Assembly: GCA_000002435.2 (NCBI GenBank)
Contig: CM018789.1
Source of the DNA: Giardia intestinalis
Taxonomy: Eukaryota
Reading direction: 5' to 3' (one strand)
Length of the DNA: 64,000 nt
Shown here: piece after piece, positions 1-28,742 of the stretch
Layout: each line of letters begins with the position of its first letter
How positions within the stretch are numbered: position 1 is the stretch's first letter
Notes under the pieces: generated by a model
Database searches by the model: none
What the model saw: the letters and a program-made list of their open reading frames with translations, nothing else
What the model was told of the DNA's origin: nothing
Program-made: the position numbers and the translations under genes

Positions 1-812
1 CCTACCCTACCCTACCCTACCCTACCCTACCCTACCCCTACCCTACCCTACCCTACCCCTACCCTACCCTACCCTACCCTACCCCTACCTACCCTACCCT
101 ACCCCTACCCTACCCTACCCTACCCTACCCTACCCTACCCTACCCTACCCTACCCTACCCTACCCTACCCTACCCTACCCTACCCTACCCTACCCTACCC
201 TACCCTACCCTACCCTACCCTACCCTACCCTACCCTACCCTACCCTACCCTACCCTACCCTACCCCTACCCTACCCTACCCTACCCTACCCCCTACCCTA
301 CCCTACCCTACCCTACCCTACCCTACCCTACCCTACCCTACCCTACCCTACCCTACCCTACCCTACCCTACCCTACCCTACCCTACCCTACCCTACCCTA
401 CCCTACCTACCCTACCCTACCCTACCCTACCCTACCCTACCCTACCCTACCCTACCCTACCCTACCCTACCCTACCCTACCTACCCTACCCTACCCTACC
501 TACCCTACCCTACCACCCTACCCTACCCCCTACCCTACCCTACCCTACCCTACCCTACCCTACCCTACCCTACCCCCTACCCTACCCTACCCTACCCTAC
601 CCTACCCTACCCTACCCTACCCTACCCTACCCTACCCCTACCCTACCCTACCCTACCCTACCCTACCCCCTACCCTACCCTACCCTACCCTACCCTACCC
701 TACCCTACCCTACCCTACCCTACCCTACCCTACCCTACCCTACCCTACCCTACCCTACCCCTACCCTACCCTACCCTACCCTACCCCTACCCTACCCTAC
801 CCTACCCTACCA
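1..812 (-). repeat. Telomeric repeat array: (CCCTA)n on the plus strand = (TAGGG)n on the minus strand; physical chromosome terminus at coordinate 1
   Basis: About 160 tandem pentamers with sporadic variant units (CCCCTA, CCTA, CACCCTA, CCCCCTA). There is a sharp junction to unique GC-rich DNA at 812/813 (ccctaccctacc|aagtatcgcc). The G-rich strand runs 5'->3' toward position 1, as expected for a terminus. TAGGG is the established Giardia telomere unit. Confidence 0.95.
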
Positions 813-3435
813 AGTATCGCCCCCTCGTGCTCCAGGGGCGGGCGGCCCACATCCTCCCCGTCGTGGTCGGTGCTGACGGCGTCCTGCACCACCTGTCTGC
901 GGCCGGACTCGCGTTCGCCGGCGTGGACCTTGCGCGCTTCATGCAGGAGGCGGCGCAGGTCATCCTCTGGCACTACAGGCTGTCGGCCCTCCTGTACGCT
1001 GGGCTGCGAGTGGAGAGGCCGGTGCACCGCCCCGCCCCTGCAGTATCCCTGCCGGAACCGGCTCCCAACGAGGCTCGGGCTACTCCTCCTACTCCCCTCA
1101 CCCCTGCCATGTGGAGCCCTGGCACGTCGCCCTCCGTAGAGATCATGGCCGATCTCAGCCAGCATCCTGATGCGGCAGTCCCTCCTCCCTGGGGTCCTGC
1201 TGAGGTCTCCTCCTCGATCACCTGGGGCACCGATCACCCCGCACAGCCGGATGCAAACGAACGCCCAGACCCCTTCATGTGCTCAAGGGCCCCCTCCCCG
1301 CCTCCACTGGATGACGACAGCCCCGACGATGCAGGAGCACCCGAGCCGGTGCACAAGGCCCTGCCGTCCTTCTTCAAGCGCGTCGGTCCTCCCAAGCCGC
1401 ATGCCCCTGATGGCTTCTACCCCTTCAAACGCATCGACACGGGGCGCTAGTGGTCATGCTTGGGCACCCTGCCCGCTGTCGGCTGCCCCACAGCGCGAAC
1501 GGACCCCTGGGCCTGCGTGCCGAGCTGTCTCCCCTGGTACTCCTCGCTCGCACCCGAGGCCTCTTGCCCCTATCATTCGGGTGTGCATCACGTCCAGACA
1601 CGGTGCGATAGATGCCTAGCCGCGATGCCATACACACTCGACCAGGCCGGGCCAGGCCGGACGCCCCCCTGGATGGCCAGACACCCGCCCTGCCTACGTT
1701 TGGGCACTTCCTCGATGGGACTCGTCATCTGCCCACGCCGCAGCCCGGTGTTCGTCTGTCTGTCCTCCCGGGCAGCGGCGGTCCTTGGGTGCTGAGTCTG
1801 GCGAGCTGGTGCTGGGGGAAGAGGCTAGCCCCGTGTGTCATTCGTACCATCGCACCGCGCCGTGCTGATCCCCCCATGGAACTGCCCGCCAGTGGCCGCC
1901 TCCGGTCCGGGGCGGCACAGCCCTGGCTCGGGCCATCCTCTGCTGCAGCGCCCCGGTGCCCCCTGGAGAGGATGGCCGGGTGCTATGTGCTACTGAGCCC
2001 TCGGGTGCATCGCTTCCCCACTGCCCCCCCTCATGTACCCACTCTGGGCGCCCCGGTACAGGGAACCTGGTCACTCTGGCCCTGGCCTCCAGGTGCTTGC
2101 CCTCCAATGGGCCATCCCTCATGCGCCTGTGTTTGCCTGGCCCATTCTCCCCTGCTCCTCTCTACCTCTCCTGCTCGGTCTCCGCTGAGTCGCGGTGACG
2201 GCTGTTGACAGTCCCGGCCGGGCCCCCAGGTTTCGCTCCATACCTGGGCCACATGCCTCCCACCAGCGCTGGCACCACATGGGTTGCTTGTCACAGATGG
2301 GACTGGCACGCACAGAAGAATATGGCTCCACGGCGCTCTGCCGGTCTGTCCTGAGCTGGCGTCATCAGCCTGGACCCGCCCTTAGGGGGCCTCCTCCATC
2401 ACCCGTGCCTCCCCACACCACCTCCTAAGCCGTCAGTCTGCTCTCTCAGGCGTGACCTTCTGTCGGCCTCCTGGGCCGTATGGGACCACCGCCCCGCTGC
2501 CCCCGCCATCTTGGCCAGACGCCTCCGGTGAGCCACCATTCTGGAATAGCACGACACGTGTGGATGGGCTAGCTATGGTGCACGGTCCGCACCCTCCCTT
2601 CTCACGGACTCCCGGGGACAGTCCGGACGCGTCTCCCTTGTCCCCCGAATCGGTGGCCCCGGCCGATCCCCATCGTGCATCCTTATATGGGGCACTGCAC
2701 ACACCTGTCCACGCTGTCCCCTTGGGCCGGCCACAGCTCACCCCGTGTGTCGATGGGCCAGAATTTGGGCTCCCCAAACCCCTCCACCCCCAAGCTGTTT
2801 CCTCGCCGGTTCTCTGGGCTCGCGCTTCCCTTTTTAGTGCAACAGCATTATGGTGCCTCGCGTATGTGCGCGGTGCAGTGGGCCGGTCTGTAGGCCTGCC
2901 TTTGACTGGAATCCTGGATCCCTGGGTTTCTGGCCCGACGCGTCGTCTTCTACCCCCCAAACAGGCCTGCACTCTTCTTGGTCCACGGGCTATTTGTCTC
3001 TTTGTTTCCGCGGCCCAGGGCCTGCTGGTTGCGCCGGGGCGACGCTCATGGTGGATTTTATTTTTTCCAAAATCCAGAATTTGGGCCTGAAGACCGCCCC
3101 CGCAGGGCCTGGAGGATGCGGGGAATCGGTCCACCCACACCATGCGCTCGAGCAAAGGCCAAGCACCCACGCCATCACGTCTCATCCAGGACTCCTGCGC
3201 CGCCACGGAGGAGGATCGGCACCTTCGCCATCGATCCTCCAGGATGCCCCCCTACCACTCCCCCTCACATGGCACGCCTCCCTCGGGCCTGTATGTCTGC
3301 ATGCCGCTATGCCCTAACACCGCAGGCCGCCCTCTCCGCGGATCCACTAACACACAGCCTGCAGCGCCTGGCCCCCCTGGCCGTGACCCGCGCGCCCCCG
3401 CGCACAGGAGCATACCCCTGGAGCTGGGGAGAAGG

Positions 3436-3520
3436 CCCCCCTGGCCGCGCCCCCGCCGCGAGACCACGCGGGCACGGGGGCTGGGCGCCCCGGGCGGGCC
3501 CTTCCCCTCCGTCGTGAGGC
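3436..3520 (+). repeat. Direct repeat unit, copy 1 (about 85 bp, about 90% identical to copy 2)
   Basis: gggagaaggcccccctggccgcgcccccgccgcgagaccacgcgggcacgggggctgggcgccccgggcgggccc... recurs at 3810-3895; both translate to ...RRPxWPRPRRETTRARGLG... Confidence 0.8.
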
Positions 3521-3809
3521 TGCCTCCCCTCCAATGTCCTTACCGCCTTGCGCGCATATTACGTAGTAAACCGCCTCTGGCGTGCCTGGACCCGGCCCCC
3601 AGGGGGCCCCCTGATCTCCCTCCCGCCTGCTCCCTGGGGCAAGGGAAGCTGCCCTTCACACCCCCGCATGGTGCTATGCAGTATATGTTGCTATGTCCCT
3701 GCCACCCCCGCCCAGGGCCTCCCGCCAACTGACCCGCAGCCCCCGTCTCTGGGCCCGCCCGGCCGCCCGAGCTCAGCGCCCTCCGCGCTCGGCAGACCCC
3801 TGACGCCGG

Positions 3810-3895
3810 GGAGAAGGCCCTCCTGGCCGCGCCCCCGCCGCGAGACCACGCGGGCACGGGGGCTCGGGCGCCCCGGGCGGACCCTCACCCCTCTG
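3810..3895 (+). repeat. Direct repeat unit, copy 2
   Basis: Same about 85-bp sequence as 3436-3520, offset by 374 bp. Confidence 0.8.
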
Positions 3896-4283
3896 ATGGG
3901 AGGCTGCACCTCTTGTAGGACCTGGCGCACACGTAGAAGTAAATATCCCTCTGTGTGGGCCTCCCTGGACGTCAACAAGGGGACCAGGGCCCCGGTGGAG
4001 CTGTCGGTGGAAGGCCAGGCACTGCAGGGGAAGGGGTCTACTCCAACCGCCTCCTCAGCCACACACCAGCTTCCGGACAGAGCGGCGACGTACTGTCTGC
4101 AGATGTGCGGCGTGCTGACCGAGGAGGAAGGGGCCCTGAAGGAGAGGGGCGGCTCTATCATGGCGCAGAAAGAGGCACCTGCCCGGGCTGCCACGAGGCA
4201 CGACATGATCGTCGCGTGCCTGTACCTCCGCGTCTCGGGGAAGTTCAACGCAGAGCTGGAAATCAAGACCCACAGCCACCTCA

Positions 4284-4379
4284 GCGACCAGAACCAGAAG
4301 CCCGACATCTGGCTCGTCGACAGATGCAAGGCGGTGGGCGTGGGTGTCATCCAGCAACCGCATGGATACCACAGCGAGA
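4284..4379 (+). repeat. 96-bp dispersed repeat, copy A (inverted partner at 17141-17242)
   Basis: gcgaccagaaccagaagcccgacatctggctcgtcgacagatgcaaggcggtgggcgtgggtgtcatccagcaaccgcatggataccacagcgaga is identical to the reverse complement of 17141-17242, apart from one extra CCAGAA hexamer in copy B. It translates to ...DQNQKPDIWLVDRCKAVGVGVIQQPHGYHSE in both ORF-track entries. Confidence 0.9.
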
Positions 4380-5431
4380 GGACAGGGGCACAGGGACGTT
4401 CTCAACCATCTACGGGATGGACGGCTCCCCACTCCAAAGACGCCAGGAAGGCCCCGCGGGCACTGAGAGCCCTGTCCGGCCCTCGCTGTCCATGTGGCAG
4501 CCTAGTACCCAGGGACTCCTTCTGTCAGCCTATTTCCAACCACCAAGTGGACCCACTGTGGGACCAGAGTGACTACGGCTGAGAAGGAGTGCTGGCCCAG
4601 AACCACGGTCAGACGGACACCGAGGGGCAACAGAGGCGACTATCATCACTCCCAGAGAGCCACAGTGACAGGAGACATATCCGCTCTTAGGGGAAGCAAC
4701 GACCAGAGATAAATAACGACGCTCCCTCATAGCGAGCCACGGCCCCACCCACTTTCTATTGCCAGGATAGACTCTCACCGAACCAGGACCACCAGTGGAG
4801 CCGAAGTCCCAACGGCTACTGCCGTTGAGTCAGGTGGAAGCGATGTAAAACGAACGCAAAGGCCCGCCCTCGCCTGTTGTGAAGGATGGCTAAAGGGGAG
4901 GTCGCCACTAGCGGACCACACGAGGCTGTGAGAAGGTCAGAACTCTGGACAGACTGGCGTGCGAGCATCTCTGGAGGCACGCTCGGCCTGGGCACACGCC
5001 TGTGGAGCGATCGAAGGAGGCACCAGGCTCTGGACGTACTGATAGAGGAAACCTTTCACTATGCTATCCGCGATCACCCTTCCCTCCGGCCGTGACCAGG
5101 AAGCGGGGAGGCCCGCTCGTGAGGTCTCCGAATGCACCTGCAGGCCCCAGCAGCACAGCGCACTTCTCATGAGAACTGGACGGCATCCAATTTTCGCTTT
5201 TGGAGTCCAGAGAGGTGAGTGAGCAGAAGAGCCCCAATAAAAGGCTCCATTCACAAACTGGACCCAGTGCAGAATCTATCGTTGGCAATCATAGTACTAG
5301 CACTAGTTGCTTTTTACGCGTTGCTTCTGGATATGCGGGTCTTCAATGTATGGTACAGGCACTCTGCAACTGACTAGTGTGTCCGGCCACAGGCAAGCAC
5401 CGAAAAACATCAGCAATTAAAAATCTACTAA

Positions 5432-7795
5432 TGCTGGTATTATTGTTCCTCGCCGTGTTCTCTGGCAGCCCAGACAGACGACAGGCCTACTCCAGACAGG
5501 GGTACTCACTACGGTGTCTGTGAGGAGGACCAGCCTGATTGTGTGGAAATAGGTGCGCCATGCTCGCTCACGGGAGGCCTCCATGTACCGAATGCAAAGC
5601 CGGAAAAATCCCTATCGACGGAGAGCGTGTGGAGCCAGCGCACCAGGCATAGCTGTGTGTGAACAAGAAGGTGTTAGTGGCAGTGGAACACGCTGTAAGT
5701 CATGTGCTGGTGGAAATGGAAGTAGGAATACTGGTGACGGCGTAGGTTATTTTCTATTTTATGGGGGCTGCTACAATAATGATGAGTGGCCTGGCACAGA
5801 CATCTGCGAGACCGTTTCAAACGGGGTATGCACAGTTTGTGATACTGAGTATGGGGCTATTTTTACGAATCCAGATACTACCACCGATGAAAGACGTATC
5901 CTATGTCGTGATACGCTATCCGGAATGGAAGGCTGTGCGACCCGTGTGTCCCTTCCTCAGAATCCTGCGCCAGACAATGCAAAAGGCGCCACCAATCTCC
6001 AATGTACTTCCTGCTTAGATGAGACCAAAGCCCCAATCGATGGAGTATGCGCAACCTTTGGCTCTAACAGGTGCAGAAAGGATACTGTACTCATTGTGTA
6101 GTTGGTGCTTGTCTAGGAGCGGATGCTCGGTAGCAGTAAGGAGGGAGCTAAAGTATGTGCTGAGGTCAACCAAACAGAGATGGGTGGCTATTCTGCTTGT
6201 GCAGTGCACCAACACTAGTGAGGCCCACACAATGGAAACTGTAGGCAGGTAAGTATTTTACACAGCTGCCAAAAGGATAGCTCAGCCGGAATGTGCGCAG
6301 CTTGCAACCAGCATTTCTATGGTCGCCCTATCTTCCTGTACAAGGGCGGCTGCTACGTCATCACTGACCCATTGGAGACACCATATGCAAAAAGACGTTC
6401 AACGGTAAATGTACTATTTGCAATGAGGACCAAGGGTACTTCATGAAGGATTCGCCATGTACTAGATGCGATGAGTTTGTCCCCGGTTGCGCTGTGTGCA
6501 CCCCTAGCCCTGATGCCTCCAGTGCTCCTGTGTGTGCCAGTTGCAAGGCCGGGAAATATGCAACTGTAGACGTGCTTCCTGTGTCGACTCATGTCCATCG
6601 GGTAGCTCAGGTAGCTGCGATAAAAATAATGTCTGTAGCTGTAAGTGCAGTACAGGAACCTACTTGGATACTGTCACAAATACACATAGCACATGCAATT
6701 CAGCCTGTACGGGTCCTGGGGCTGATAAGTGCACGTCCTGTGTCTCAGGAAAATATCTCAAGCGTGATGCACCTGGTGCCATTGAATGTGTAGATTCTGT
6801 TGACTGTGGTGAGGGGTATTATGCAGATAGTGCCACTAACACTTGTTCTTCGTGTGGTATTGACAAGTGCCAGACGTGTGTGTCTGATAGTGGTGTGGTA
6901 AAGTGTATGAAGTGCCTTTCTGGGTATCTTTCCATCGATAGCCTTTCATGTCAGTCCCAGTGTGATGGACCAAATCAGCAAGGACATGCCAATGGCAAAT
7001 CCGTTTGCGAATGCATTGCAGGGGCTTATCTGGAGGGCTGTGTCCAGTGCGACTCAGCACGCCTGGAGTGGGTCCAGGGTCTGATCACTGCACAAGTGCT
7101 CCTCGGGAAAGTACACCAAGATGAATGGTTCTGACACGGCCACATGTGTCGACGCGTCTGGCTGTGGCGATGGATACTATGCGGATCCAGAAGAGCTCCA
7201 GTGTGCCACATGTGGAATTGAGAGCTGTCAAGCATGCACTCCTAAGGATAACAACCTCGTGTGCACACGGTGCTCCCCCGGACTTGTCTCCGTCGATGGC
7301 TTCTCGTGCCCACTCACATGCACGGAGCTGGATCAGAGAGAGGAGGATGGAAGGTGCGTCTGTGCAGAGGGCTTCGAGCCCAGCAGTGACGGCGCATGCA
7401 TCGCTAGGAACACCTGCCCGTCAGACGCCACGGGGTGCTCGAGTTGCAACACAAATGGCGAGTGTCTTTCATGTGCAGACAGCAGCCACAATGTCCAGCC
7501 GAGCAAGAGATCCTGCGCCTCAGGCTGTCCAAGCGGATCACAATCAGTCGGCTCTCTCTGCATATGCATAGAGGGGTACACCCTCAGGGGTGACACATGC
7601 GTCTCTCAGACCAGGAAGGCCGGCTCCAGCTCCACGACGATCATCGTGGCAGTCGTTGTCTCTCTTCTCATCATAGTGGCCGTCGCCCTCGCATGCTGGT
7701 TCGTCCTGCGGAGGCGGAGAGAATCGAGGGCAGCTTTGAAGACAAGGGTGATAGCTGAGAATATGAAGCTCGTGGGGACGGTGGACGAGCTCTGA
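5432..7795 (+). pseudogene. VSP/HCMP-like cysteine-rich surface protein gene broken by at least four frameshifts (pseudogene)
   Basis: An AT-rich initiator caattaaaaatctactaATG at 5432 is followed by a signal peptide MLVLLFLAVFSG. The reading frame then hops across three frames (ORF-track pieces 5553-6101, 6532-7134, 7121-7795 plus untracked segments). There are two GGCY motifs (YFLFYGGCY, FLYKGGCY) and many CXXC pairs. The C-terminus has a TM segment IIVAVVVSLLIIVAVALACWF and a long cytoplasmic tail (RRRRESRAALK...) of HCMP type, not CRGKA. Confidence 0.6.
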
Positions 7796-9416
7796 CTCTG
7801 TGGCCATGCGAGCCGCAGCTCATAACGAGTGAATGCTCAGTGATCCACAACGGGCTCAGGCAACCGCCTAGACTAGCAGATGCTTGGCTCCCGTGTGTAT
7901 GCCTTCTGAGCCATCGGCTTGGGGCAGACTCAGTCCCAGAAGCAGAGGGCGCCGGCCAGTGGAGAAGGCCTCACAGGCCTGTGCAGCCCGGACGGTGTGT
8001 GCGAAGCGCCGCCTCAGGCCAGGGAATCGTGTTCACCCCCACGGCGACAAGACTGGGGTGTAGCAGAGCTATGGTGCCATCCTAGCTGCCCCGAGAATAG
8101 TACGCGCCCCTGCTCTCATGCCCTCCTCCCCATTATGCGTGCCATAGGGATGCTTGTCCCGTTAGGTTCCGGGGGCCCAGCACGCCTCATCCCCCATCGT
8201 GACACCTTACCTGGCAACACGCACTGTGCTGTAGACTCTACGGTGGACCGTCGAGCTGCCACCTGCGATTGATTGCGGTGTCTTAGGAGGTCGATAGCCA
8301 GGTTCCCCGCACGGTGGCCTATCTCAGTGAGCGCTCGCAGAAGCCACAGAGCCGCTGGGGACGGCCTAGCTGGCCCAGAGCATCGACTCCCGTCAGAATC
8401 AATAAATAATGCGCAGGACGAGGAGCTCAGCTTTCGGCGTCTCGGCCCCATCGGATGGCCCTGCAGTCTTTGTGGGAGTGGGTTGCCCTGCTGCGTAGCA
8501 ATGCCACGCCTTCGCGTAGAGTCGACCCGGGCTAAAGCTCACGTGCTGGGGCCCACACAGGATGCTTGACCTTGCCTGGCGCCGGGCTGTGTTTCTTCAG
8601 TCAGATAGGAACAGACGAGCCTTGCAGGCAGTGATGGGGTGTGCCAACGACCCTGATCTCGGTGAGCGACGTGCGGTGCATGCAAGTGTGGGCTCAGACC
8701 ATGGGTGGTGCTGTCCTGGCCTTGTTCAGTCGCCCCACACAGGCCCAGAGGTCTCACTCGCACGGAGCAGAGCGAGGATGCGGCCCCCGCTCTGTTGCCG
8801 CGCTGTTGATCGGGAAAGCCGTTATCTATTCCTAAGAGGCTCTCCATCGGTGTCAGTGTCGACGCCTCCCACTCCAGCTGATATGCACACTGGCCAAAGA
8901 TGCGATAAAGGACCTCCGATCCTTGTAGCGCTACGATTGTGCCTCGCAGGTCGGGGGTAGTGGCGCTTGTGGAACTGTTCCTCGGTATCGGGTCCACGTT
9001 GGGTAAGCGTGAGGCACGCAACGAATGCCCCGATAGCACCACGGGATGGATGCCGCCACCATGGACAACACGTCGAAGCACCTGGCTTCTTCACCCATTG
9101 GAACACATTTAGCATGGTGCCCATAGCCAGTAGCTCAAGGGCCACAAGCGACTGGCACGCTATGATAATGACACTGTGCACATGAGCAGGCACGGAGCCA
9201 GTAACAGCCCGTCGCTAACCAGGACCAAACGAGAACGGGGCTTCTGCACTTTTAACTTATGTTATTGAGATGTGACACACCAAGCTTGCTCTCGGTCCAC
9301 AAGGCTGGTATCAGCGCCTCATGACAGTGAAACAGAGCACGCGCTAGTAGTATCCAGCATGCGGACCCAAAGGTCTTTTGGCGTATGTGTTGTTAATAGG
9401 ATAATAATTTCTCTGA

Positions 9417-10928
9417 ATGCTAGTACTACTACTATTTTCTATTGCTTTGGGATGTGCCTTGGGTACACCTTTTACTAACGAACCTGAACATGGAATGGGG
9501 GTCCGCTTCACCCGACGCGGACTGGAGAAGTTCTGCCAGAAGGGCTACTCTATCATTCCTGACGTTATCTCTGCTCTTCCAGCGTTTCCAGAGATACCCA
9601 TAACTGTCGGGTCTTTGAAGCTTACCCTCTCGAATGTGAGGCCTCGTGCAGTGCGTGTTTCAACCATGAAGGTCTACTTGCAAGACAACAACTTTGTCAA
9701 GATGGAGGCCCGGGACGGCATCATGCAGATCTCGATGCGGCTTAAAACTACCATCACTGGGATCACCGGGACCGTCGACTGCATCTTCACCCTCAAGGAC
9801 TTCGGGGCAGACATCTCTCTGAGGCTCGGAGACGACCCCACCTGCCCCTACCACTTCGGGCTCTCCGAGATATCGAACGTCGTGTACTCGTCTGGGCTCG
9901 ACATCGATGCGATCGGACTCGACACAGGCGGGTCTGTCCTTGCAACTGCCATCCAGGGCATGGCGCCCACGTTGGAGGATTTGATGAAGAACACCGTGTT
10001 GCAACTCCTCTTTAACACAATCTTCAATTCAATAAAGCAGTCAATGCTCAACCTGCCCTTAGTTGTCCAGATCGGTGATGACTATCTGACTGACCAGCGC
10101 TACATCAACGGCATCAATGTCGTCGATAACAAGATAGTGGCAGACCAGGGTGGGTTTTCAATGATCGCTACTATCCCAGATTGGTCGGTCAGAGCTCTCT
10201 ATCCAAACAAGATCACCTCTCCCCCTCCGAAGACAGTCTACACCGACAGGGACTATGAGTTCTATGTAGACAGGGAATCAGTTAACTCCTACCTGTATGC
10301 CTGGCACGTGGCGTATGACAAGTTCAAGGCAGACGGTCTCACTGTCCCGTACAGCACCATCAGGGCGCAGAACATACCCGGCCTTGCAGAGGCTCTTGTG
10401 AAGGCCGGACTACTAAGCACTGTTAACGACCTTGGACTCGGGGTCACCCTGACCCTGTCTGTCAGTCCCTCCAAGGATGCCGCACCCCACATACCGTGGA
10501 TCGGGGCGGCTGCACTACCGGTCAACCTCACGGGGGCACTCGTTGTGACAGCTAGCAAGGTATCAGACCAAACCCCTGTAACTCTGGCCAACCTTGAGGG
10601 CGACGTGCTCTTCTCTTCTGCGCTCAAGCTTAAGAAGTTTACCTATGGATTTAACAACGACCAAGTTCGTGCATATGTAGAGCTTCTTGGAGTGCACGAT
10701 ATCGCCACCAAGAAGCACAGCGAAGGGATGGATGATCCTGTTCCTCTGCTGAAGCGTCTTCTTCTAGATAAGTACCTCCCCCTTGTTAACCCGATCCTGG
10801 CCGAGACAGGGGTGGCCCTCATGAACGGGAACTTCATCGACTATGCCACTGTCGACGTCATTTATCTGTGCAGCGAGGACAGGGTGCTCTTCGTTGCCGA
10901 CATTGAGAAAAACCAGTACTTTGCTTGA
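9417..10928 (+). CDS. BPI/LBP/CETP-family lipid-binding protein (bactericidal permeability-increasing-like), secreted
   Basis: 503 aa with a signal peptide MLVLLLFSIALGCALG. The N-terminal segment FTRRGLEKFCQKGYSIIPDVISALPAFPEIPI..LKLTLSNV aligns with the BPI N-terminal domain (..ISQKGLDYASQQG..IKIPDYSDSFKI..). The two-domain length fits. ATG at 9417 is preceded by AT-rich aggataataatttctctgaATG. Confidence 0.6.
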   Translation: MLVLLLFSIALGCALGTPFTNEPEHGMGVRFTRRGLEKFCQKGYSIIPDVISALPAFPEIPITVGSLKLTLSNVRPRAVRVSTMKVYLQDNNFVKMEARDGIMQISMRLKTTITGITGTVDCIFTLKDFGADISLRLGDDPTCPYHFGLSEISNVVYSSGLDIDAIGLDTGGSVLATAIQGMAPTLEDLMKNTVLQLLFNTIFNSIKQSMLNLPLVVQIGDDYLTDQRYINGINVVDNKIVADQGGFSMIATIPDWSVRALYPNKITSPPPKTVYTDRDYEFYVDRESVNSYLYAWHVAYDKFKADGLTVPYSTIRAQNIPGLAEALVKAGLLSTVNDLGLGVTLTLSVSPSKDAAPHIPWIGAAALPVNLTGALVVTASKVSDQTPVTLANLEGDVLFSSALKLKKFTYGFNNDQVRAYVELLGVHDIATKKHSEGMDDPVPLLKRLLLDKYLPLVNPILAETGVALMNGNFIDYATVDVIYLCSEDRVLFVADIEKNQYFA

Positions 10929-13900
10929 ATGCTGTACCGCAGACTATCTACTCGTGCAGACCGGGGCTATACCGTACTAGTAGCCCTACTCGGACGAGGG
11001 GCGTCACTCTCAATCCAATATTCAGATATAAGCACTTGTGTACACTCCTAACCAGTATGCTAGTCATAATAGTAGCTGTCTGATTACCAATATGATGCGC
11101 CAATTGACTGTATAAGCGGGGGTTACACTTGCTGCTCTGATAGCGGTTATAGACAGGATGCTCCGACAGATACACGTCTAGCAGGCTTGATTATCCAGCA
11201 TACTGAGACTCCAGGATACAGAGCAGACCCATACAGAGACACGCCCACTACGTGCTATGTGCTGTGTTGCCGGATCCCCTGCCTGTGGATATGGCCCACG
11301 ACTTCACGAGTAAACCCACGGAACTTTGGCTATGTCTGAAAATAGAGGCATGCCTTTATGAAAAAGTTGGTTGTTATTACATTGTGGGCCTGTTCTCCTG
11401 TCCCCGTCACTGTGGTGGGGCTCCTTATTAACGACTCCCGCCGGCTAGAAGCAGATCGCACCGGGTGACGGGTCCAGTCCATCCCACAGGTCAGCTCGTC
11501 GGTACTCATTTCGTGGTACGTGTACGCGTTGACTGCTCGGCTACCTAGCTTGTAATGACGATACTGAAGGGGAGCTCAACTCTAACAGAAGCTTTCTCTG
11601 TCTCTGGGCCAGATGAGCAGCACAAGGATTGCCAGCCGGCTCAACCTCAAGGCGGCGTAACATCTCCTAAGCACACCCCTTGTAGTTGTAGCAGAATACA
11701 CGAGAAACGAGAAAACCCGGGAGACTATATCCTCACAAGGGGATGCACTAGCCAGTGGCTTGCACAAGGCCCATTCGTTTTGCAAACTAGCAGATCATTA
11801 CTCAGGGGCACACAGGGTTGTGAAGTCACTAATATCCCTTTGACTAACTGCAAAAACTACTGGCGCCTCTCTACGCCACGGTAGGGGTTAGCAGGTCTGT
11901 GGAGGGCGCGAGACTTAGCTATCTGCGTTTAGACGAGATCCGATCCTTGCTTTGTGTCGCCTAAGAAGTCAGGGCTCTACTCGACGGCAGACATAGTTTA
12001 GAGACTAATCGACACACTAGAAACGACAGATGTAAAAAGTTTGCAATATGACAAGTGGTATGGATCGCGACACAGCCTTTCTCTGCCTTGGACAGGCGCG
12101 TCTGGGAGTAGGACAGGCGCGGACATCTTGCCATGGCCTAGCTGGCGGGTGCCTGGGCATGTTCAGTGATATAGACTACTCTCGCAGTGTGTGTAGATGC
12201 GTCGGTACTGCGTAAGAGTGGCGCATAAAGACGGTAATTTGCTATGAAAATCCGCCAATCCATCCACTGTAATAAGCACGGGCTAGTTGAAGATCTGCTG
12301 GACCATCTTTACAGGCACCGCCTTCAGCAAGTGGCCTTTTCTGGACCAAGAGCGTGACAGGCCCTTTGTCCTTGGCCCCTTCTGTCCGCCTGCAGCGCTT
12401 TCGTGACCCGGCTAAGGGGAGCAAGCTGTACACCCTTTACCAGGGAGCGATGAGCTGAGCATCAGACAGTCAACTGTAGATGTTTCTGTAGCCCTTGTTC
12501 TCATTACTCTGTAGAGGGTTACCACACACCTTTTCTACTCTGTGCAGGATGGCGCTCCGGCGCACATGAGGTAGCATGGAGATGCACCAGAACAACTGGC
12601 AGTCTTCGAAGCGTAGTGCTAACCAGTCAACGCTGCTGTCTATTCTGGCCTTCCACAATGGAGAAGGGGCCAGAGCAGAGCCAAGGGAAGCTAACCTTTG
12701 ACCCTTTGCCCTGGCGTCGGCAACCAGAAGGACCAACAAGGGAGCGCCCTACTGAGCTCTTAGGCATATTAATGTGAAGGAATATCTGGACCGCTGATTT
12801 GGGTGGACGGCTAGATGAGCCCTCGGAACCAAGTTGCATCATGCATCAGGGTGTGCGGCGGCAGGCTGATAAGACTCGGGGCAAGCATGCGCAACAAAAA
12901 CCTCGAAGGCTTAAACGGCATAGACCCTGACACACGATAATGCCCTACTTTATCTTTTGGCTTTTCGGGCCTCGGAGAGATAGCGACAGGATAGCAGTCA
13001 GCCACATGCCTTTCATAGATACATACTGCAGTACTTACAAGTGTCTGATCCTAACATTTAGTGGCCTATCACTCGAGCGGACGCCAGCCCCTGTCTCCAT
13101 GGTACCTACACTAATGAGCCCTTCTCCGAGCATAGTAGTAGTGATGATTTCATCGATGCCTTGCTACTGTGTGCACTTCTACAGCTCTTAAGGAGATGAC
13201 AGCCGCTGAATGTACGCATCCATATTACCTCTACACACTGTTCTTCAAGGCTCATCTGCACTCTTTGGGCTCCTACTCATCCCTTGGCCCTTTGGTCTGC
13301 AATTGCTTGTCTCGTGGTTATTCGAATCTTTATTGTCTGCTACGGCGATCTTGGATTGCCGCATACATTGCACGCCTGACAGATTCCTTTAGGATTGACA
13401 ACGCAAGGCTCTGGCTCCTAGATCGTAAGTAGGCACGATCATTGATTACCTGTGTGGATGCTAGCTCGTACCATCGCAGCTGCTTCTGTAATGAATTACC
13501 TCGGGCGGTGGATCGACAGCATTGACGCACAGCTCACTGTGCCACTGTGCACTTTGTAATCTCATGGTGGCTAATATTTAATGTTAGAGGATCTCCAAGT
13601 CAGATACAAGACGATGATTTTGTAGTGCCGTAGTGTCGTTCGGATGCAACAGAGCGCAAAGGCCAGCCCATATCGAGGTCGAGACCGAGAGCAATCAAAT
13701 AGCAGCCAGGAGATTCACTGCGCATTCCTGTCGCCTTTTGCCAAGATGGAGTGCCAAGTGGGCCCACGAACAGGGGCTGTCGGACTGTTCTTTGCTCGCT
13801 GCCCTCTAGTTAGCCCTAGGCTTCAAGGTTCGGGGTATTCTTCTGCCATATGAGATTCAGCATGTAACTTAGAGCACTCTGTTACTGGCCGAGTGTTCAG

Positions 13901-17140: not shown

Positions 17141-17242
17141 TCTCGCTGTGGTATCCATGCGGTTGCTGGATGACACCCACGCCCACCGCCTTGCATCTGT
17201 CGACGAGCCAGATGTCGGGCTTCTGGTTCTGGTTCTGGTCGC
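17141..17242 (-). repeat. 96-bp dispersed repeat, copy B (102 bp including a CCAGAA hexamer expansion)
   Basis: Reverse-complement identity to 4284-4379. An additional weaker match (aagttcaaYgcagagct, encoding KFNAEL) lies contiguous in copy A (about 4240) but about 750 bp away in copy B (about 16380). Confidence 0.9.
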
Positions 17243-17494: not shown

Positions 17495-20400
17495 GCGCCC
17501 GAACAGGCCCAGCCCTCGCACCGGCTCCCCCGGTCGCCTCAGTCGCGGCGCTAACAGGAAGACGCGTGTCCTGTTCGACGACCCGGCACACGGACCGACG
17601 GCCGGCGGACCGCATGGCAAGGTGGAATAAAAAGTTTGAAACGTCGGCGCTCGCGCGAATCGGAATGCGGCGTTCTCCGGGCTGGGAGGCCGTGCGTGCG
17701 GGCATTACCTCTAGCATGTTCCTCACCACGGTCCCAGGCTGATGGGCGGCCGAGGCCTTGTCAGCGTCACGCACGCCTCTTGCCGGCATTGGGCCGCCCG
17801 GGATCGTACATAGGCAGGGCTGCAGAGGCCTTCCGCGGCTCCTGCGGGCAGTCGCCTGCTGCGGAGAGCACGCCCAGCTTGGGAGCTCCTCAGGATCACC
17901 GTGCAGGTCATCGAGACCGGTTCGACGGGCCCACGTTGAAGGAGGCGCATGGGCCGGTGAGCGTGCCGTCTTTGCAGGCAGGCTCTCGCTGGCCGGGTGG
18001 CGGGGCTCTCCTGTATCTCCGCCGGAGGACGCCCTATCTACTGGCAGCATTTCCACAGTTGCAACGCTACAGGGGCGGGCTGCAGCTCTTCCGCAGGACC
18101 TCGTCGGACGGGCAGTTGGCGTACTCTCACGTGCACTCGCAGGAGCTCCCCGCCCTCGTAGAATAGCACCCCGCGCGCCCCAAAAAGCCAAATCGAAATG
18201 CAGCAGGTGCAGTCGACTCTTCTCGGGTTGTGGCGCTGATCCAATCAGACGCCGCGGCACGCCCCGAGCAGGCCTCGTCCAGCAGCGGGTGCTCTAGCCG
18301 CGCCCCTGAGGCAAGTCTGCTTCTGACCCCGTCCCTGTGCCGACCCCAGCGAGCCCCCGACGGCGCTGGAGAAGGAGCGCCTTGCGGAGCCCCTTACTGG
18401 CCCCTCGGTGCAGGAGGATCCCCGGATTACCGATTTGCGTGCGGCAGCCGGCGGGGCGCCCCGGGCCATCCTTACATCTACATGTCCAGCGAGTGCCGCA
18501 GCGGGCCGAGATGAAGCCGCGGGCGCCGATGCCGGGGCGCTGGCCACGGAGGCTGCAGCGTTAGTAGCCAGGCGAACCCCTTGGTTCGCGTTTTAGTTTT
18601 TGGGGTCCCAAGTTAGCGCCCCCGGAGCAGCACCGGCTGTACACTGTTCACTGCACTCGGTCGGCCGGATGGTGTAGCAGCTACGGCTACTCTAATTACG
18701 GCGCTTGATGTGTTTACTGCTGGGGGGTGCTGCTCTCCGTTCTACGGGGTGGCAGGAGTGCTCCCGCGTGCAGGTAGTACCAGTGGACGCCCCTCAGCTG
18801 CCGGGCCGGAGCGGCTCTTGGATGGGTGGACCTATCCTCCTCCGTGCGGCCGTCCCTCGGGCCTAGTAGACGTGCCTTGCTGTGTCCCGCAGCCCGGATC
18901 CTTGCCTTCAGACGCCAGCACGGAACTCTCTAAATTTGTCCTCCTGTGACATCCTATGCTGCCATGCACACTTCGTTTCTAGCAGGCCCTTAAGGTTGCA
19001 GCCCAGGACTACCGGCCCCCACATCATCAGATATGGTTGCTGACTGCGGCCGCCTACGCAGTCGCAGCTGGTTCCGCACTGGCCCTGTATCGGTAGCCTT
19101 GGCCTGCATCGCCGGTGTGCGGCCCACTTCGCTCTGCGGGTGTACCACGTATAGTTACCAGCCTCGTGATGTGGTGCACCGCTGGGGCAGATCCTAGCGG
19201 CAGTAATCCTGCAGCCCCATGTGGTCGTCTGGCAGTGGATGCGAAGGTTTGCAGGCGGGAGCGGAAGGTCGGGATGCTCTTGCCCACGTCACCGGGCGCC
19301 GTGGTCAAGGGCTCCGAAGACATGCCCAGCCCTCCGCTGGACGAGGATCGATGGGCCGCTCAGAGCCCCGCAAGCTGCGTCCAGGCTGGTATTAGGTGGC
19401 CCAATGACGTGGCGACGGGAGTTGTGAGGCGAGACCGCCACACGCCGAGCGTCGGGCCATTGCTACACCGACTCCCCAAAGGGACACACTCAGCCCGGGG
19501 CCGGATGTCCGCTTGTGTCCCAGAGTGAGCGCCTTGCATGCTTGCCGCGAGCAGCTATCTAGGGCTCGAGGTTAGCGGGCGGGCTCCAGCTATCGCCCCC
19601 TCATTGTCTCGGCCACCGGGACAGAACTCCCTTCTCCGGAGACGTGATCCTCGGGCCTGTGTGGCTCCCCTTCTTTGGAACGGGCTGGCTGTAGCCCTTC
19701 CGTATCATAGCCAGTGCTCTCTGAGGCCCTGATGACGCGCGGCTGTGTCTTGCACGTGTCGCTACAGTGGGACCCGCGCCTGTCCGTCCTTGCGTCGCCT
19801 ACGGTGTAACCAGGGGCGACCCGGGCACGCTCCTATCGGCACATGGCGCCCTCCGCTGTGCTGGCTCCTGACGGCAGCCCACTCTACCGGGTCTGGTACT
19901 GCAAGGACCACCTATAGTGGGGGCAGGCGGGTGCGTCTACGCATCACCTCTGCGCTGTAGACAGTAGACGGCACGCCATCAGTTAGCACAAGATCCGGTC
20001 CGCGTCTTCTCCGGCTCTGTATCCATCGGGCTATGCTAACCATTACTATAGCCGCCCTATGACAGAACTAGGCCTTGCTTCGCAGAAATCCAAAAACAGG
20101 GGTCGTAGATCGGGCGGCGCGGGTCGCCCTCGGGCTAATCCACTGCCGCGGCACGGCCACTGCGGGCCCGTCCAGGTGGCCATGGAGCTGGGGGCGGCCT
20201 CGGTCGAGGATCATCGCTCGACGCGCCTCTCCTGCAGCGGCCAGGGCGTCCCGGCCGGTCTCGGGCGACGAGGACGCTATTGAGGCACGGAGAAGTACGG
20301 TGGCCCACAGGATTCGGCGGGGGGCCGGATCGCGCAGAGCTGGTTGAGGAGACTAGAGCGCCAGCCAGGCCGGGGCGCCGCCGGGGAGGCTGATATGGGT

Positions 20401-20722
20401 TTAGGTTACAGCGGGGGCATCTGGGCCGTCGTCTGCTGGCTCCAGGGCAGAAGAGCGGTAGACATGCCGGGCGGTCCCGCTGCTTATTTTTGGATTTTCT
20501 ACTCTTTCACGCTGCATAGAAGGGGTGAGATCTTAGGAAAAACCGGGCTTTGAGGGTCTACTGGCATCGTGAAAGAGCAGTAGGCTGTACAGTGACGCGT
20601 TTACTACCTAAGTGGATGCCACTTACGCCTTCCCCCGACAGATGAACCACCAGCAGAGGAACCCTATGAGGCCCCCGACGACGACGATGGCTGCGACGGA
20701 GATCCCCGCGATGGCGCCAGTG
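17495..20722. repeat. Left arm of a 3.2-kb-arm inverted repeat (partner 25515-28742); symmetry x <-> 46237-x
   Basis: ORF-track entries are mirrored with a constant coordinate sum of 46237 (e.g. 20344-20553+ vs 25684-25893-; 18230-18514+ vs 27723-28007-). The arms are indel-free from about 17640 to 20620, with only a few amino-acid substitutions visible (E/K; PSR/TFR; A/T, P/H, V/M). The arm is about 68% GC with no recognisable gene. The inner end overlaps the last ~35 codons (~100 nt of conserved tail) of the VSP CDS. Confidence 0.9.
20599..20622 (-). promoter_or_regulatory. Conserved VSP 3' end / extended polyadenylation signal, mirror copy for the minus-strand VSP
   Basis: Exact reverse complement of 25615-25638 (the two positions sum to 46237). 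Confidence 0.75.
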
Positions 20723-22266
20723 CTGAGGCCGCTCTTGTTCATACTGTCTCCTCCAGTGTCTCCGCCGGTGCCATCGTCAGTCTTTTGTTGTGTCAAATAA
20801 CAAGTAACAGCCCCGGAAGAACTGGCTGGCTCCTTGCAGCTCAGACAGTTTGGTACGCCTTTAATGCTTCCATCATCCTTGTCGCATGCTACGCACTTTG
20901 TTCCGGACTTATAGTATCCCGGGAAGCACTCCGAACACTGCTGTGAAGGAGCACTTCCTGTACATTTTGAGCAGCCAGCTGGACATGTCGGACAGACCTT
21001 TCCACTGGGCTGTTGTCCGTTCGCGCAAGTAGTGCACTCTCCATTGTTAGCTGCCGTGCAGACAGCCTTTCCAGGAAGCTTCGCCACACCATAGCATCCA
21101 CCAGAAATGAGGGCGTATGCTCCTGTGCACGCCGTGCACTTCCCGCTTGCAGCTGTGCATACACTCGCGTCTCTCCCAATTTTTACTGCTGTGCACACTC
21201 CGTCGATTGGGGCATATCCCTCCTTGCACTGGGCACAGTACTTCGCGCCCCCCACGTCAGCCGTGCACTGCCCGTCTGCACAGTTGGTAATGAACGCACC
21301 AGTGCATTCCTTGACGCACCTCCCAGTCGCTCCGTTGGCCTCATACAGAAGGGAGTGTCCAGGGTAGCAGGCCGTGCAGGAGGTCTCCTTGTCGTCGGTC
21401 TGGCAGCTGGCACACGACGAGTGGCAGGGGGTGCAGACGTTTTGCTTGTCGTATGTCCCGGCGGGGCAGTTGTCCATGCACTCGTCCTTGAGGGGGCTGA
21501 CCTTCTTACTAGCATGACACTTAGAGCAGGTGACCTTGACTCCTGCTTCAGGAGCAGGTGCTCTAGGTATGCATAGTTCGCAGTCTTCTATGCCACCGCT
21601 TCCAGCTTCACTACAGCCAGCACACTTCTTAACACCGTCGACGATTGTCGGGAAGAAGCCCTCGCCGCATCCTGATTCCGCGACGCACTCCATAACGCCT
21701 CTATCTATTTTCAAGTAGAGGTCTGCGGCACATTTGGTGCATATGGCGGCCTTAGTGCCACCAATTGATAGTTGCCCTGGCTGAGTACAGGTGACGCACT
21801 CGGCCACGCCCGTGTACTTCTTATCGCCAGTAAGCGTCACGCCCGTTGTATCCCCGCACGAAACAACCGAGTCGTGTGCGTTATCAGTGCCCGGCGGCAG
21901 GAAGTATCCTTCCTTAGCCTGTGTGCACACTCCAGCATTTGCTGTTTCACACATCGTGTTGCCAGGTGCCTGGCTATCCTTGTAGCATCCGCCCTTGTAC
22001 ATGAAGGACTTATTAGCGCACTGTGTGCACTTCCCATCTTGCTTCCGGGTACACTCGTTATTGTCTGCTGAGCACACTCCGTCCGTTGGGGCAGATTGAG
22101 ACCCACCGCCGTTGCACTGCGAGCAGTATTTCTTGCCGTTGACGACGGCGCTACAGGCCTTGCAAGTGTTGGGCTCACTGCTAGCTACCTCTTCGCATTC
22201 GTCTCCGGCTTGCGCTGCCCGTACTAGCTCGAGTGCGAGACCGGTCAGCAAAAATGCATAGAACAT
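20623..22266 (-). CDS. vsp: Variant-specific surface protein (VSP), 547 aa
   Basis: Signal peptide MFYAFLLTGLALELVRAAQA, numerous CXXC motifs, GGCY motif (MYKGGCYKD), and C-terminal TM plus the invariant tail GLIGFLCWWFICRGKA*. The ORF track extends to a TTG at 22293; the first ATG is at 22264-22266. Confidence 0.9.
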   Translation of the reverse strand: MFYAFLLTGLALELVRAAQAGDECEEVASSEPNTCKACSAVVNGKKYCSQCNGGGSQSAPTDGVCSADNNECTRKQDGKCTQCANKSFMYKGGCYKDSQAPGNTMCETANAGVCTQAKEGYFLPPGTDNAHDSVVSCGDTTGVTLTGDKKYTGVAECVTCTQPGQLSIGGTKAAICTKCAADLYLKIDRGVMECVAESGCGEGFFPTIVDGVKKCAGCSEAGSGGIEDCELCIPRAPAPEAGVKVTCSKCHASKKVSPLKDECMDNCPAGTYDKQNVCTPCHSSCASCQTDDKETSCTACYPGHSLLYEANGATGRCVKECTGAFITNCADGQCTADVGGAKYCAQCKEGYAPIDGVCTAVKIGRDASVCTAASGKCTACTGAYALISGGCYGVAKLPGKAVCTAANNGECTTCANGQQPSGKVCPTCPAGCSKCTGSAPSQQCSECFPGYYKSGTKCVACDKDDGSIKGVPNCLSCKEPASSSGAVTCYLTQQKTDDGTGGDTGGDSMNKSGLSTGAIAGISVAAIVVVGGLIGFLCWWFICRGKA

Positions 22267-23544
22267 TGCGGCCCGCGCAGCCCTGTCACGCAAGGTTATG
22301 GCAGCTCCACTTACCGCGCTTATACCCTTTCATGACGCTTGCCTATGCTGTATGACACACTGACAGAGATTACCCTTCATGTGGGCCTGCGTTGAGAGGT
22401 GGGGCCGTGCTGATTCCACCTTCGTGTGACTGGCCGGCTGTGAAACGGACCGATCGATGTAAGCTTCCTCCCTTGTGTTGCAAGGCATACCATAGTAACG
22501 GCTACACGGCGGTCATGTTTCGCTCTTCGCTGTGATGTGAGGGTTTCCTGGCGACCAGCTCTCCTGCTGTGCCAGTCACAAGGTCTGCCAAGGGACTCCT
22601 AGATTCTCCTGAATGCCTGACCAGCGACCCGATGGAGCCAGCCGTGCAATGTCCAGCAGCCCCGAGCCACGGGTCACCAGTGCATGCCTCGAACACTGTC
22701 CCCCCGAGATTCCACTGTTGAAGCCCGGCAGGAGCGATGCCCCGTGGAGGATGGCTACGTTCTATCGCGACGCACTGTGACTGTCCCCCTGCTCAGGGAC
22801 GCCGTCTGTCATACGACCCAACCCGCTTGCACCACAGACTATTGGTGAACCCGCCCCCTGTCGACTCCCACGCACTGAAGGGCCCTACTGACCACTTTAG
22901 AGACCGTCCTTCGCCGGTCGCAGGCCCCTCTAAAGGAACTGGTGCCTCACCTGTTCCTATCTGGGATGGTTCCGCTACGGTGGACAGCCTTCGGGCACGC
23001 AATGATGTCCCAGCACCCCTAAAATGGTGGTTCCCCACTTGACCGGCTCTAGCCAGCCGCACCACAGCGTCTCCCAGACACGAGGGGTACCTCCGCGCAC
23101 TAGAGAAGAGGCAACACTGGGGAGGCTTGATGCTATTCGGGCTGCCCGCTCCCTGCTGGCGAGGGGTAGTAGGGCCGTAGACAAACCAAACCGTTGCTAT
23201 GCCTCTGGTCGGGTGCCCGGTTCCTCGAGTCGTGGCCGAGGGTGATCATCCAGCCGATACGCAGGGCGGCCACTGATACTGCCATCAATGAAATGCTCTT
23301 GTGCGCGAAACTCTCCTAGCAAGGCTAGTCCTCAACTAGCTGGCCAGAGGGCGGGCTACGTGCTATCTGAGAGGATAGCTAAATCTATGTTTTGTCGTAA
23401 CGGGAAGGTTGGCACCGGATCAGCTCTTTGGGTCTTTGGCATCTTTGACGCGATATCTAACAAGTGCGTTACTGAATGGCTACTTAGAGAATAGAGTCAC
23501 TGGTGAAATGTCTGCTTACGCTAGCAGTGCCTCGATGGGCCTCA

Positions 23545-28600: not shown

Positions 28601-28742
28601 AACTTTTTATTCCACCTTGCCATGTGCATTCGCCGGCCGTCGGTCCGTGTGCCGGGTCGTCGAACAGGACACGCGTCTTCCTGTTAGCGCCGCGACTGAG
28701 GCGACCGGGGGAGCCGGTGCGAGGGCTGGGCCTGTTTGGGCG
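25515..28742. repeat. Right arm of the inverted repeat (partner 17495-20722)
   Basis: Reverse complement of the left arm; near-identical apart from SNPs and a single indel near the outer boundary (about 28640). Confidence 0.9.
25615..25638 (+). promoter_or_regulatory. Conserved VSP 3' end / extended polyadenylation signal (GTGGCATCCACTTAGGTAGTAAAC)
   Basis: AGTAAAC (Giardia AGTRAAY poly(A) signal) lies 18 nt after the stop codon, within the characteristic CTTAGGTAGTAAAC VSP 3' motif. Confidence 0.75.

Follow-up and report, generated by a model that had tools for sequence, protein, structure and literature searches.

The window analysed here, a stretch of 64,000 nucleotides from Giardia intestinalis WB C6, lies at an assembled chromosome end without rDNA. 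We consider it highly probable that about 160 telomerase-made TAGGG units sit at this end directly on a 5′-truncated copy of the telomere-associated non-LTR retrotransposon GilM. The arrangement is already known, namely as the capped, 5′-truncated GilM/GilT end of Arkhipova and Morrison (2001). Our result is mainly a correction of a sequence-only reading, which had described a clean junction between the telomere and unique DNA; the apparent join is better seen as a textbook Giardia end, with a telomerase tract on a dead GilM copy. In annotation, repeat or pseudogene is the appropriate label here, and unique subtelomere is not. This end contributes a breakpoint mapped exactly, to codon 857 of 1,068 and with 2 nt of overlap, and it carries no rDNA. 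The positions of the features are collected in Table 1.

Table 1. Features located in the window.
Feature	Position	Strand	Remarks
Telomere array	1..811	− (G-rich strand)	about 160 units; 141 canonical, remainder C-run length variants and one CCACCCTA
Shared CC dinucleotide	810..811	+	present both in the incomplete final telomere unit (CCCTA-CC) and in the element (..GCC/AAG..)
Retrotransposon ORF remnant	812..1450	+	codons 857–1068 of 1,068 and stop codon
Element 3′UTR, complete, 2,129 nt	1451..3579	+	ends ..GTAGTAAACCGCCTCTG
198-aa ORF inside the 3′UTR	1612..2208	+	gene-called in 51 blocks of public assemblies
Structured motif of about 100 nt near the element 3′ end	3430..3530	+	long hairpin and small hairpin (predicted)
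3′-terminal stub of another, related element lineage, 374 bp	3580..3953	+	ends ..GTAAATATCCCTC, no A tail
ORF	35604–36917		residue-identical to G. intestinalis WB C6 XP_001704409.1
eIF2B-beta	42074–43225		residue-identical to G. intestinalis WB C6 XP_001704403.1

The Telomere Array

Tandem Repeats Finder reported a single array in 1–811, with a period of 5, 160.2 copies, 94% matches and 5% indels. A TAGGG array of about 0.8 kb at the window start had been claimed before and is borne out; the claimed span of 1–812 holds at its start, while at its other side the array stops one base earlier, at 811. The three-unit 15-mer CCCTACCCTACCCTA, searched with at most one mismatch, gave 123 matches, all on the + strand and all within 1–809; it had none in the other 63 kb of the 64-kb window, and the number expected from shuffled sequence was 0. 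The + strand reads (CCCTA)n, and its reverse complement ends ...TAGGGTAGG-3′ at coordinate 1. Because CCCTA lies on the + strand, the G-rich (TAGGG)n strand is the − strand with its 3′ end at coordinate 1, which is the end-like orientation proposed by the earlier reader. At the left edge of the window the G-rich strand thus runs 5′ to 3′ towards the chromosome end, and 141 of the 160 tandem units are canonical TAGGG pentamers.

The window starts inside the array, whose length is therefore at least 811 bp. This falls within the 0.5–2.5 kb measured for terminal restriction fragments of Giardia, according to PMC10999387 (citing Uzlikova 2017). In the G. intestinalis WB reference, assembled from PacBio RS II data, (TAGGG)n was reached at 4 of the 10 chromosome ends (PMC7000408). 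The earlier statement that the array joins no rDNA unit agreed with our search for rRNA beside it: Rfam gave 0 matches at the gathering score (whole window) and likewise 0 at E ≤ 1 (1–12000). The array is very probably a real Giardia TAGGG telomere tract, oriented like a physical end. Its terminal position is likely, the visible sequence beginning at coordinate 1.

The array could instead be an interstitial telomere-like tract left by an end-fusion or by an assembly join, with the chromosome continuing past coordinate 1. Since the window begins inside the array, there may be more sequence beyond. However, the array is oriented like an end, its length is within the range measured for telomeres, and Giardia reportedly has no long interstitial tracts (PMC10999387, citing Uzlikova 2017). 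The flank is canonically terminal as well: a truncated GilM with its 3′ end inward is followed by variant-specific surface protein (VSP) genes at 20623–22293 and 23503–25614. In addition, no further telomeric repeat occurs in the window, and the four ends of the reference assembly just mentioned reach (TAGGG)n. Orientation, context and length, together with the reported lack of long tracts of this kind in Giardia, make an interstitial origin very improbable in our view, and we continue with the telomere at a chromosome end.

Variant Telomere Units

The unit census consisted of 141 CCCTA, 8 CCCCTA, 4 CCCCCTA, 5 CCTA and 1 CCACCCTA. One of the 5 CCTA is a partial unit cut by the window edge, which leaves 17 internal variants. 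They occur between positions 35 and 784; the distal half of the array holds 8 of them and the proximal half 9. The variants are thus scattered through the array, just as the sequence-only reading had noticed. All 17 internal variants are length changes, and 16 of them are pure changes of the C run. There are no substitutions within the 811-base array. As examples of k-mers, GGGTAGGGTAGGG is canonical, and GGGTAGGGGTAGGG and GGGTAGGTAGGG contain variants.

These units (TAGGGG, TAGGGGG, TAGG and TAGGGTGG on the G-rich strand) may be the genuine output of an imprecise Giardia telomerase, spread evenly by turnover of the whole tract. Giardia telomerase is said to produce variant repeats, including TAAGG and TAAGGG (PMC10999387), and the even distribution along the array would agree with this. 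Furthermore, the neighbouring 2,770 nt agree perfectly with contigs of independent sequencing runs, which indicates that the local consensus is good. However, neither TAAGG nor TAAGGG was present in the unit census, and only length changes were found. The authors of the WB assembly reported homopolymer indel errors in the PacBio data and corrected them with mapped short reads, for which uniquely mapped reads were required (PMC7000408). A pure repeat yields no uniquely mapped reads; hence this correction cannot work inside the array. Because the variants include no substitutions, long-read consensus error is inseparable from real variation here, and genuine telomerase output is a possibility that we would sooner doubt than accept.

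Full-Length Copies in Public Contigs

We compared ten contigs from independent sequencing runs (L010–L019) with the DNA next to the array. Window 810–3579 is 100% identical, over 2,770 nt and gap-free, to L013:750–3519 and L019:778–3547, and its identity to the eight further contigs of this set is 99.3–100%. The DNA that had been called unique is therefore a perfect match to a multi-copy tandem element. Upstream of the point equivalent to the junction, the contigs read ...GAAGGCCGCC/AAGTATCGCC and then continue into an ORF of 1,068 aa. In L011:254–3460 this ORF contains a C2H2 finger, Pfam RVT_1 (E = 3.6e-21), the motif CCHCKQPFLPRHHLVC, and QPDLVIGGGFGDLVVTVPWRLERSYALKAAKYRPLV. Against R2 proteins in the PDB it scored E = 5e-9, and the zinc-finger, reverse transcriptase (RT) and CCHC/endonuclease stretches were collinear. 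An RT together with a C-terminal CCHC/restriction-like endonuclease is thus found through contigs that are 100% identical to the window.

The contigs also contain tandem copies. The element ends in ..GTAAACCGCCTCTG(T), an A tail of 6–16 nucleotides follows, and then the next unit begins with CCATGCG..; in L012, L013 and L017 the order is one unit, A13–16 and the next unit, head-to-tail. The tandem period is 5,467–5,478 bp and varies with the length of the A tail. For GilM, a copy length of 5,474 bp and a copy number of at least nine in the WB genome have been published (PMC7000408). The 100% identity to contigs of a tandem element with an R2-like ORF indicates, as far as sequence comparison goes, that the terminal element is a 5′-truncated member of the GilM/GilT family. 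It is most probably GilM rather than GilT, a label that rests on unit length only.

A second family was found in L010, downstream of a GilM-like 3′UTR, with 62% amino-acid identity; judged from its sequence it may be GilT. In L010:4400–5300 the GilM-like 3′UTR gives way to a different 3′ terminus, after which the second family begins with its 5′ end. Either L010 is a mixed GilM/GilT array, or the assembly path switched within a shared 3′ motif.

The Terminal Copy, Probably of GilM

The frame is open from base 812 to the stop codon at 1448–1450 and encodes 212 residues. It begins at the K of a KYRPLV motif, just past the CCHC / QPD..D..V / R.E endonuclease core, and the remnant therefore encodes neither a reverse transcriptase nor a complete endonuclease. 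No Pfam domain was found in the 212 residues of 812–1447. It had been stated that no recognisable retrotransposon ORF lies at the junction; in fact 812–1450 is the C-terminal part of a reverse-transcriptase/endonuclease ORF. It was overlooked because four fifths of the ORF are gone and the remaining tail has no Pfam domain.

About 2,693 nt are missing from the start of the terminal copy, namely the 5′UTR, the zinc finger, the reverse transcriptase and most of the endonuclease. Its unusually long 3′UTR is complete: after the stop codon, which ends at 1450, another 2,129 nt follow up to the 3′ terminus at 3579. The 3′ end faces the centromere and the broken 5′ end faces the chromosome tip, with the TAGGG repeats directly on the 5′ end. 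Head-to-tail tandem units occur in other contigs only; the window itself carries one 5′-truncated copy. The coding strand of the element is C-rich (GC skew −0.17). This agrees with the strand bias reported for GilM/GilT, in which G-rich motifs are concentrated on the G-overhang strand (PMC10088271).

The GC-rich 3′UTR contains long ORFs at 1612–2208 (+) and 2433–3206 (−), the latter an antisense ORF of about 250 aa, and both are gene-called in dozens of public assemblies. The exact look-up of the 198-aa ORF on the + strand retrieved the full-length element copies. This ORF is probably not a real gene. Both 3′UTR ORFs are likely to be spurious and to inflate gene counts.

Homologous Proteins

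A word-indexed protein search with the 212-aa query found only two distant matches, and the first 72 aa found none; the word index was too sparse here, and proteins with 69% identity were missed. An exhaustive search with a profile of the junction ORF and two distant relatives found six proteins, among them the first long RT-bearing homologues. P0031 has 1,134 aa and matched the profile at residues 896–1118. P0033 has 883 aa, matched at 692–785 and is annotated as a reverse transcriptase of Giardia assemblage B. Both carry Pfam RVT_1 with E about 2e-25. P0031 shows zinc-finger, RT and CCHC/endonuclease stretches collinear with R2 retrotransposon proteins in the PDB. The exact-product look-up returned nothing for the junction ORF (two start codons), the 503-aa ORF at 9417 and the antisense ORF at 3691–4350.

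We then aligned seven homologous proteins to the window by TBLASTN. Each gave one match, and all matches started exactly at base 812. Upstream of the residue equivalent to this base, 5 of the 7 homologues extend further, by 95 to 895 residues. The common start at base 812 shows that the telomere cuts through a retrotransposon ORF.

A similar subtelomeric layout was seen in an assemblage B contig end, AHHH01000009.1 (L005:1–10300), where two co-oriented RT genes about 6.2 kb apart are followed by a VSP gene. This contig has no telomere repeats.

The Junction

The junction ccctaccctacc/aagtatcgccccc is located between 811 and 812, exactly as quoted by the earlier reader. The breakpoint corresponds to codon 857 of the 1,068-aa ORF. 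The identity of the window to the full-length copies begins at 810, where the full copies read GAAGGCCGCCAAGTATCGCC. Owing to this 2-nt overlap, the breakpoint is ambiguous between 809/810 and 811/812. A longer overlap of up to 4 nt (TACC) was suggested by the assemblage B relative, but the identical assemblage A copies read GCC, which leaves only 2 nt. The 30-mer across the junction was not found in the JGI metagenome contigs.

Proposed Formation of the Chromosome End

The reviews PMC5537684 and PMC10999387, both citing Arkhipova and Morrison (2001), place GilM and GilT between the subtelomere and the telomere repeats, in head-to-tail arrays of one direction. The same reviews describe 5′-truncated distal copies, unusually long 3′UTRs and reverse transcription directed to the chromosome end. 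The orientation of the element in the window is that of reverse transcription running towards the chromosome end.

Following the reading of a telomerase tract on a truncated GilM, a GilM copy or a longer array would formerly have stood at this chromosome end. Erosion or breakage may then have shortened the end, or reverse transcription may have stopped early while the element was being added. The exposed 3′ end of the G strand would then have primed telomerase, and the CC/GG dinucleotide at 810–811 may have aided this priming; a 2-nt overlap is fairly often expected by chance, and it argues only weakly for microhomology. Telomerase would have restored a TAGGG tract of normal length, and the dead GilM copy would now act as a subtelomeric buffer only, between the telomere and the VSP-rich subtelomere.

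A different history would be site-specific insertion of the element into an older telomere array, like SART/TRAS in the silkworm, with 1–811 as the old target. The R2-like endonuclease encoded by the full element is of a sequence-specific type, and reviews place GilM/GilT among elements “inserted into telomeric repeats” (PMC10088271). However, insertion into an array leaves repeats on both flanks, and no telomere repeat was found proximal to 811 within the window, neither in the proximal flank (3580 onward) nor in the rest. On its proximal side the element borders on the stub of another one, and the tandem copies in other contigs are joined via A tails and not via TAGGG repeats. Because the element has no telomere repeat on its proximal side, such an insertion seems to us very unlikely, and the addition of telomere repeats by telomerase to a truncated GilM is the reading that we retain.

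Proximal Junctions and the 3′ Motif

The GilM 3′ end at 3579/3580 has no A tail and adjoins other DNA, the stub listed in Table 1. Stub 3580–3953 can be aligned with roughly the final 380 bp of GilM, weakly in its upstream part and with about 85% identity in a core of about 100 nt. Two successive element 3′ ends (3579/3580 and 3953/3954) thus lack an A tail, whereas array units elsewhere are always separated by A6–16. Because the A tail is missing at 3579/3580, the proximal junction was not formed as the junctions within arrays are, which is a point against the proposed explanation of this end.

The core belongs to the motif near the GilM 3′ end, of which the stub carries a second copy at 3812–3913. 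The motif is 79–89% identical to segments of four other contigs (L006, L007, L008 and L009), likewise near an element 3′ end, with copies at L006:1180–1283, L008:2550–2655 and L009:3138–3240. The proteins of the elements that share it are only 35–41% identical. RNAalifold predicted a long hairpin and a small one, with 31 pairs. Among five sequences, 95.5% of the cells pair, and 5 of the 31 pairs are changed on both sides. In the controls, 0 of 500 shuffles reached the observed values, and slid partners paired at 38–60%. No Rfam family was matched by the motif (whole window at the gathering score; 1–12000 at E ≤ 1). These values, from five sequences only, are suggestive of a conserved RNA structure. 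The motif may have been described already in the primary papers.

It could be supposed that the two junctions without A tails record successive additions of cDNA onto a bare, eroded end, with the motif as the recognition signal of the reverse transcriptase. We think this unlikely. If it were true, Giardia would repair chromosome ends by retrotransposon alongside telomerase, and the motif would be an undescribed cis-element common to elements with such divergent proteins. The structured 3′ motif is also of possible use to students of how R2-like elements recognise their own RNA.

Comparison with Known Systems

GilM/GilT (Arkhipova and Morrison 2001, PNAS 98:14497) is the closest system and comes from the same organism. 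The published unit of 5,474 bp compares with the 5,467–5,478 bp of the tandem contigs (PMC7000408). Judged by PMC5537684, PMC10999387, PMC10088271 and PMC7000408, the likeness extends to a single ORF with RT and C-terminal CCHC/endonuclease, a 3′UTR exceeding 2 kb, arrays of A-tailed units in head-to-tail order (seen in other contigs), a 3′ end facing the centromere, and a terminal copy that is 5′-truncated and TAGGG-capped. The differences are that this end has one truncated copy and a 374-bp stub of a related lineage instead of a long array, and that its two proximal junctions have no A tails; nothing else of substance differs.

HeT-A, TART and TAHRE of Drosophila are likewise non-LTR elements with the 3′ end inward, 5′-truncated distal copies, long 3′UTRs and a strand composition bias. 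However, Drosophila has no telomerase and these elements themselves form the telomere, whereas the Giardia element is capped by telomerase repeats. Their endonuclease is of APE type or absent, and that of the Giardia element is R2-like.

At the rDNA-telomere junctions of Giardia (Adam 1991; Le Blancq 1991, as cited in PMC10999387), TAGGG also stands abruptly on a truncated repeated unit. The present end differs in that no rRNA was detectable in the window with Rfam. Compared with R2 (PDB 9nl2, 9nl3, 9dou), the full-length relative has the same N-terminal zinc finger, RT, and C-terminal CCHC with a PD-(D/E)xK-type endonuclease. However, the target of R2 is 28S rDNA, the two are only remotely similar (E about 1e-8, due to RT), and the copy in the window has lost all R2 domains.

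Other Features of the Window

A perfect inverted copy of 93 nt occurs at 4287–4379 and 17141–17233, 12.8 kb apart. Its coding-looking sequence had no Pfam match and no significant match to the GilM ORF. Both copies may derive from a degenerate element, for example GilD. Region 4040–4381 was considered as a second endonuclease fragment by eye (C..C, RHD, KPD..D), but BLASTP against the GilM ORF gave E = 0.14 with a non-collinear alignment, and Pfam gave none; this candidate was rejected.

A perfect inverted repeat of 3,127 nt (17613–20739 and 25498–28624), with a further 116-nt arm pair at 99%, flanks a divergent VSP pair at 20623–22293 (−) and 23503–25614 (+). Each arm includes the final 117 nt of a VSP gene and 3 kb downstream. 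Outward-facing VSP pairs of this kind have been listed for the WB genome (PMC7000408). Region 5400–7800, which separates the retrotransposon remnants from the first ordinary genes, contains cysteine-rich, VSP-like ORF fragments, which are probably VSP pseudogenes; the fragment at 7121–7795 bears a C-terminal membrane anchor.
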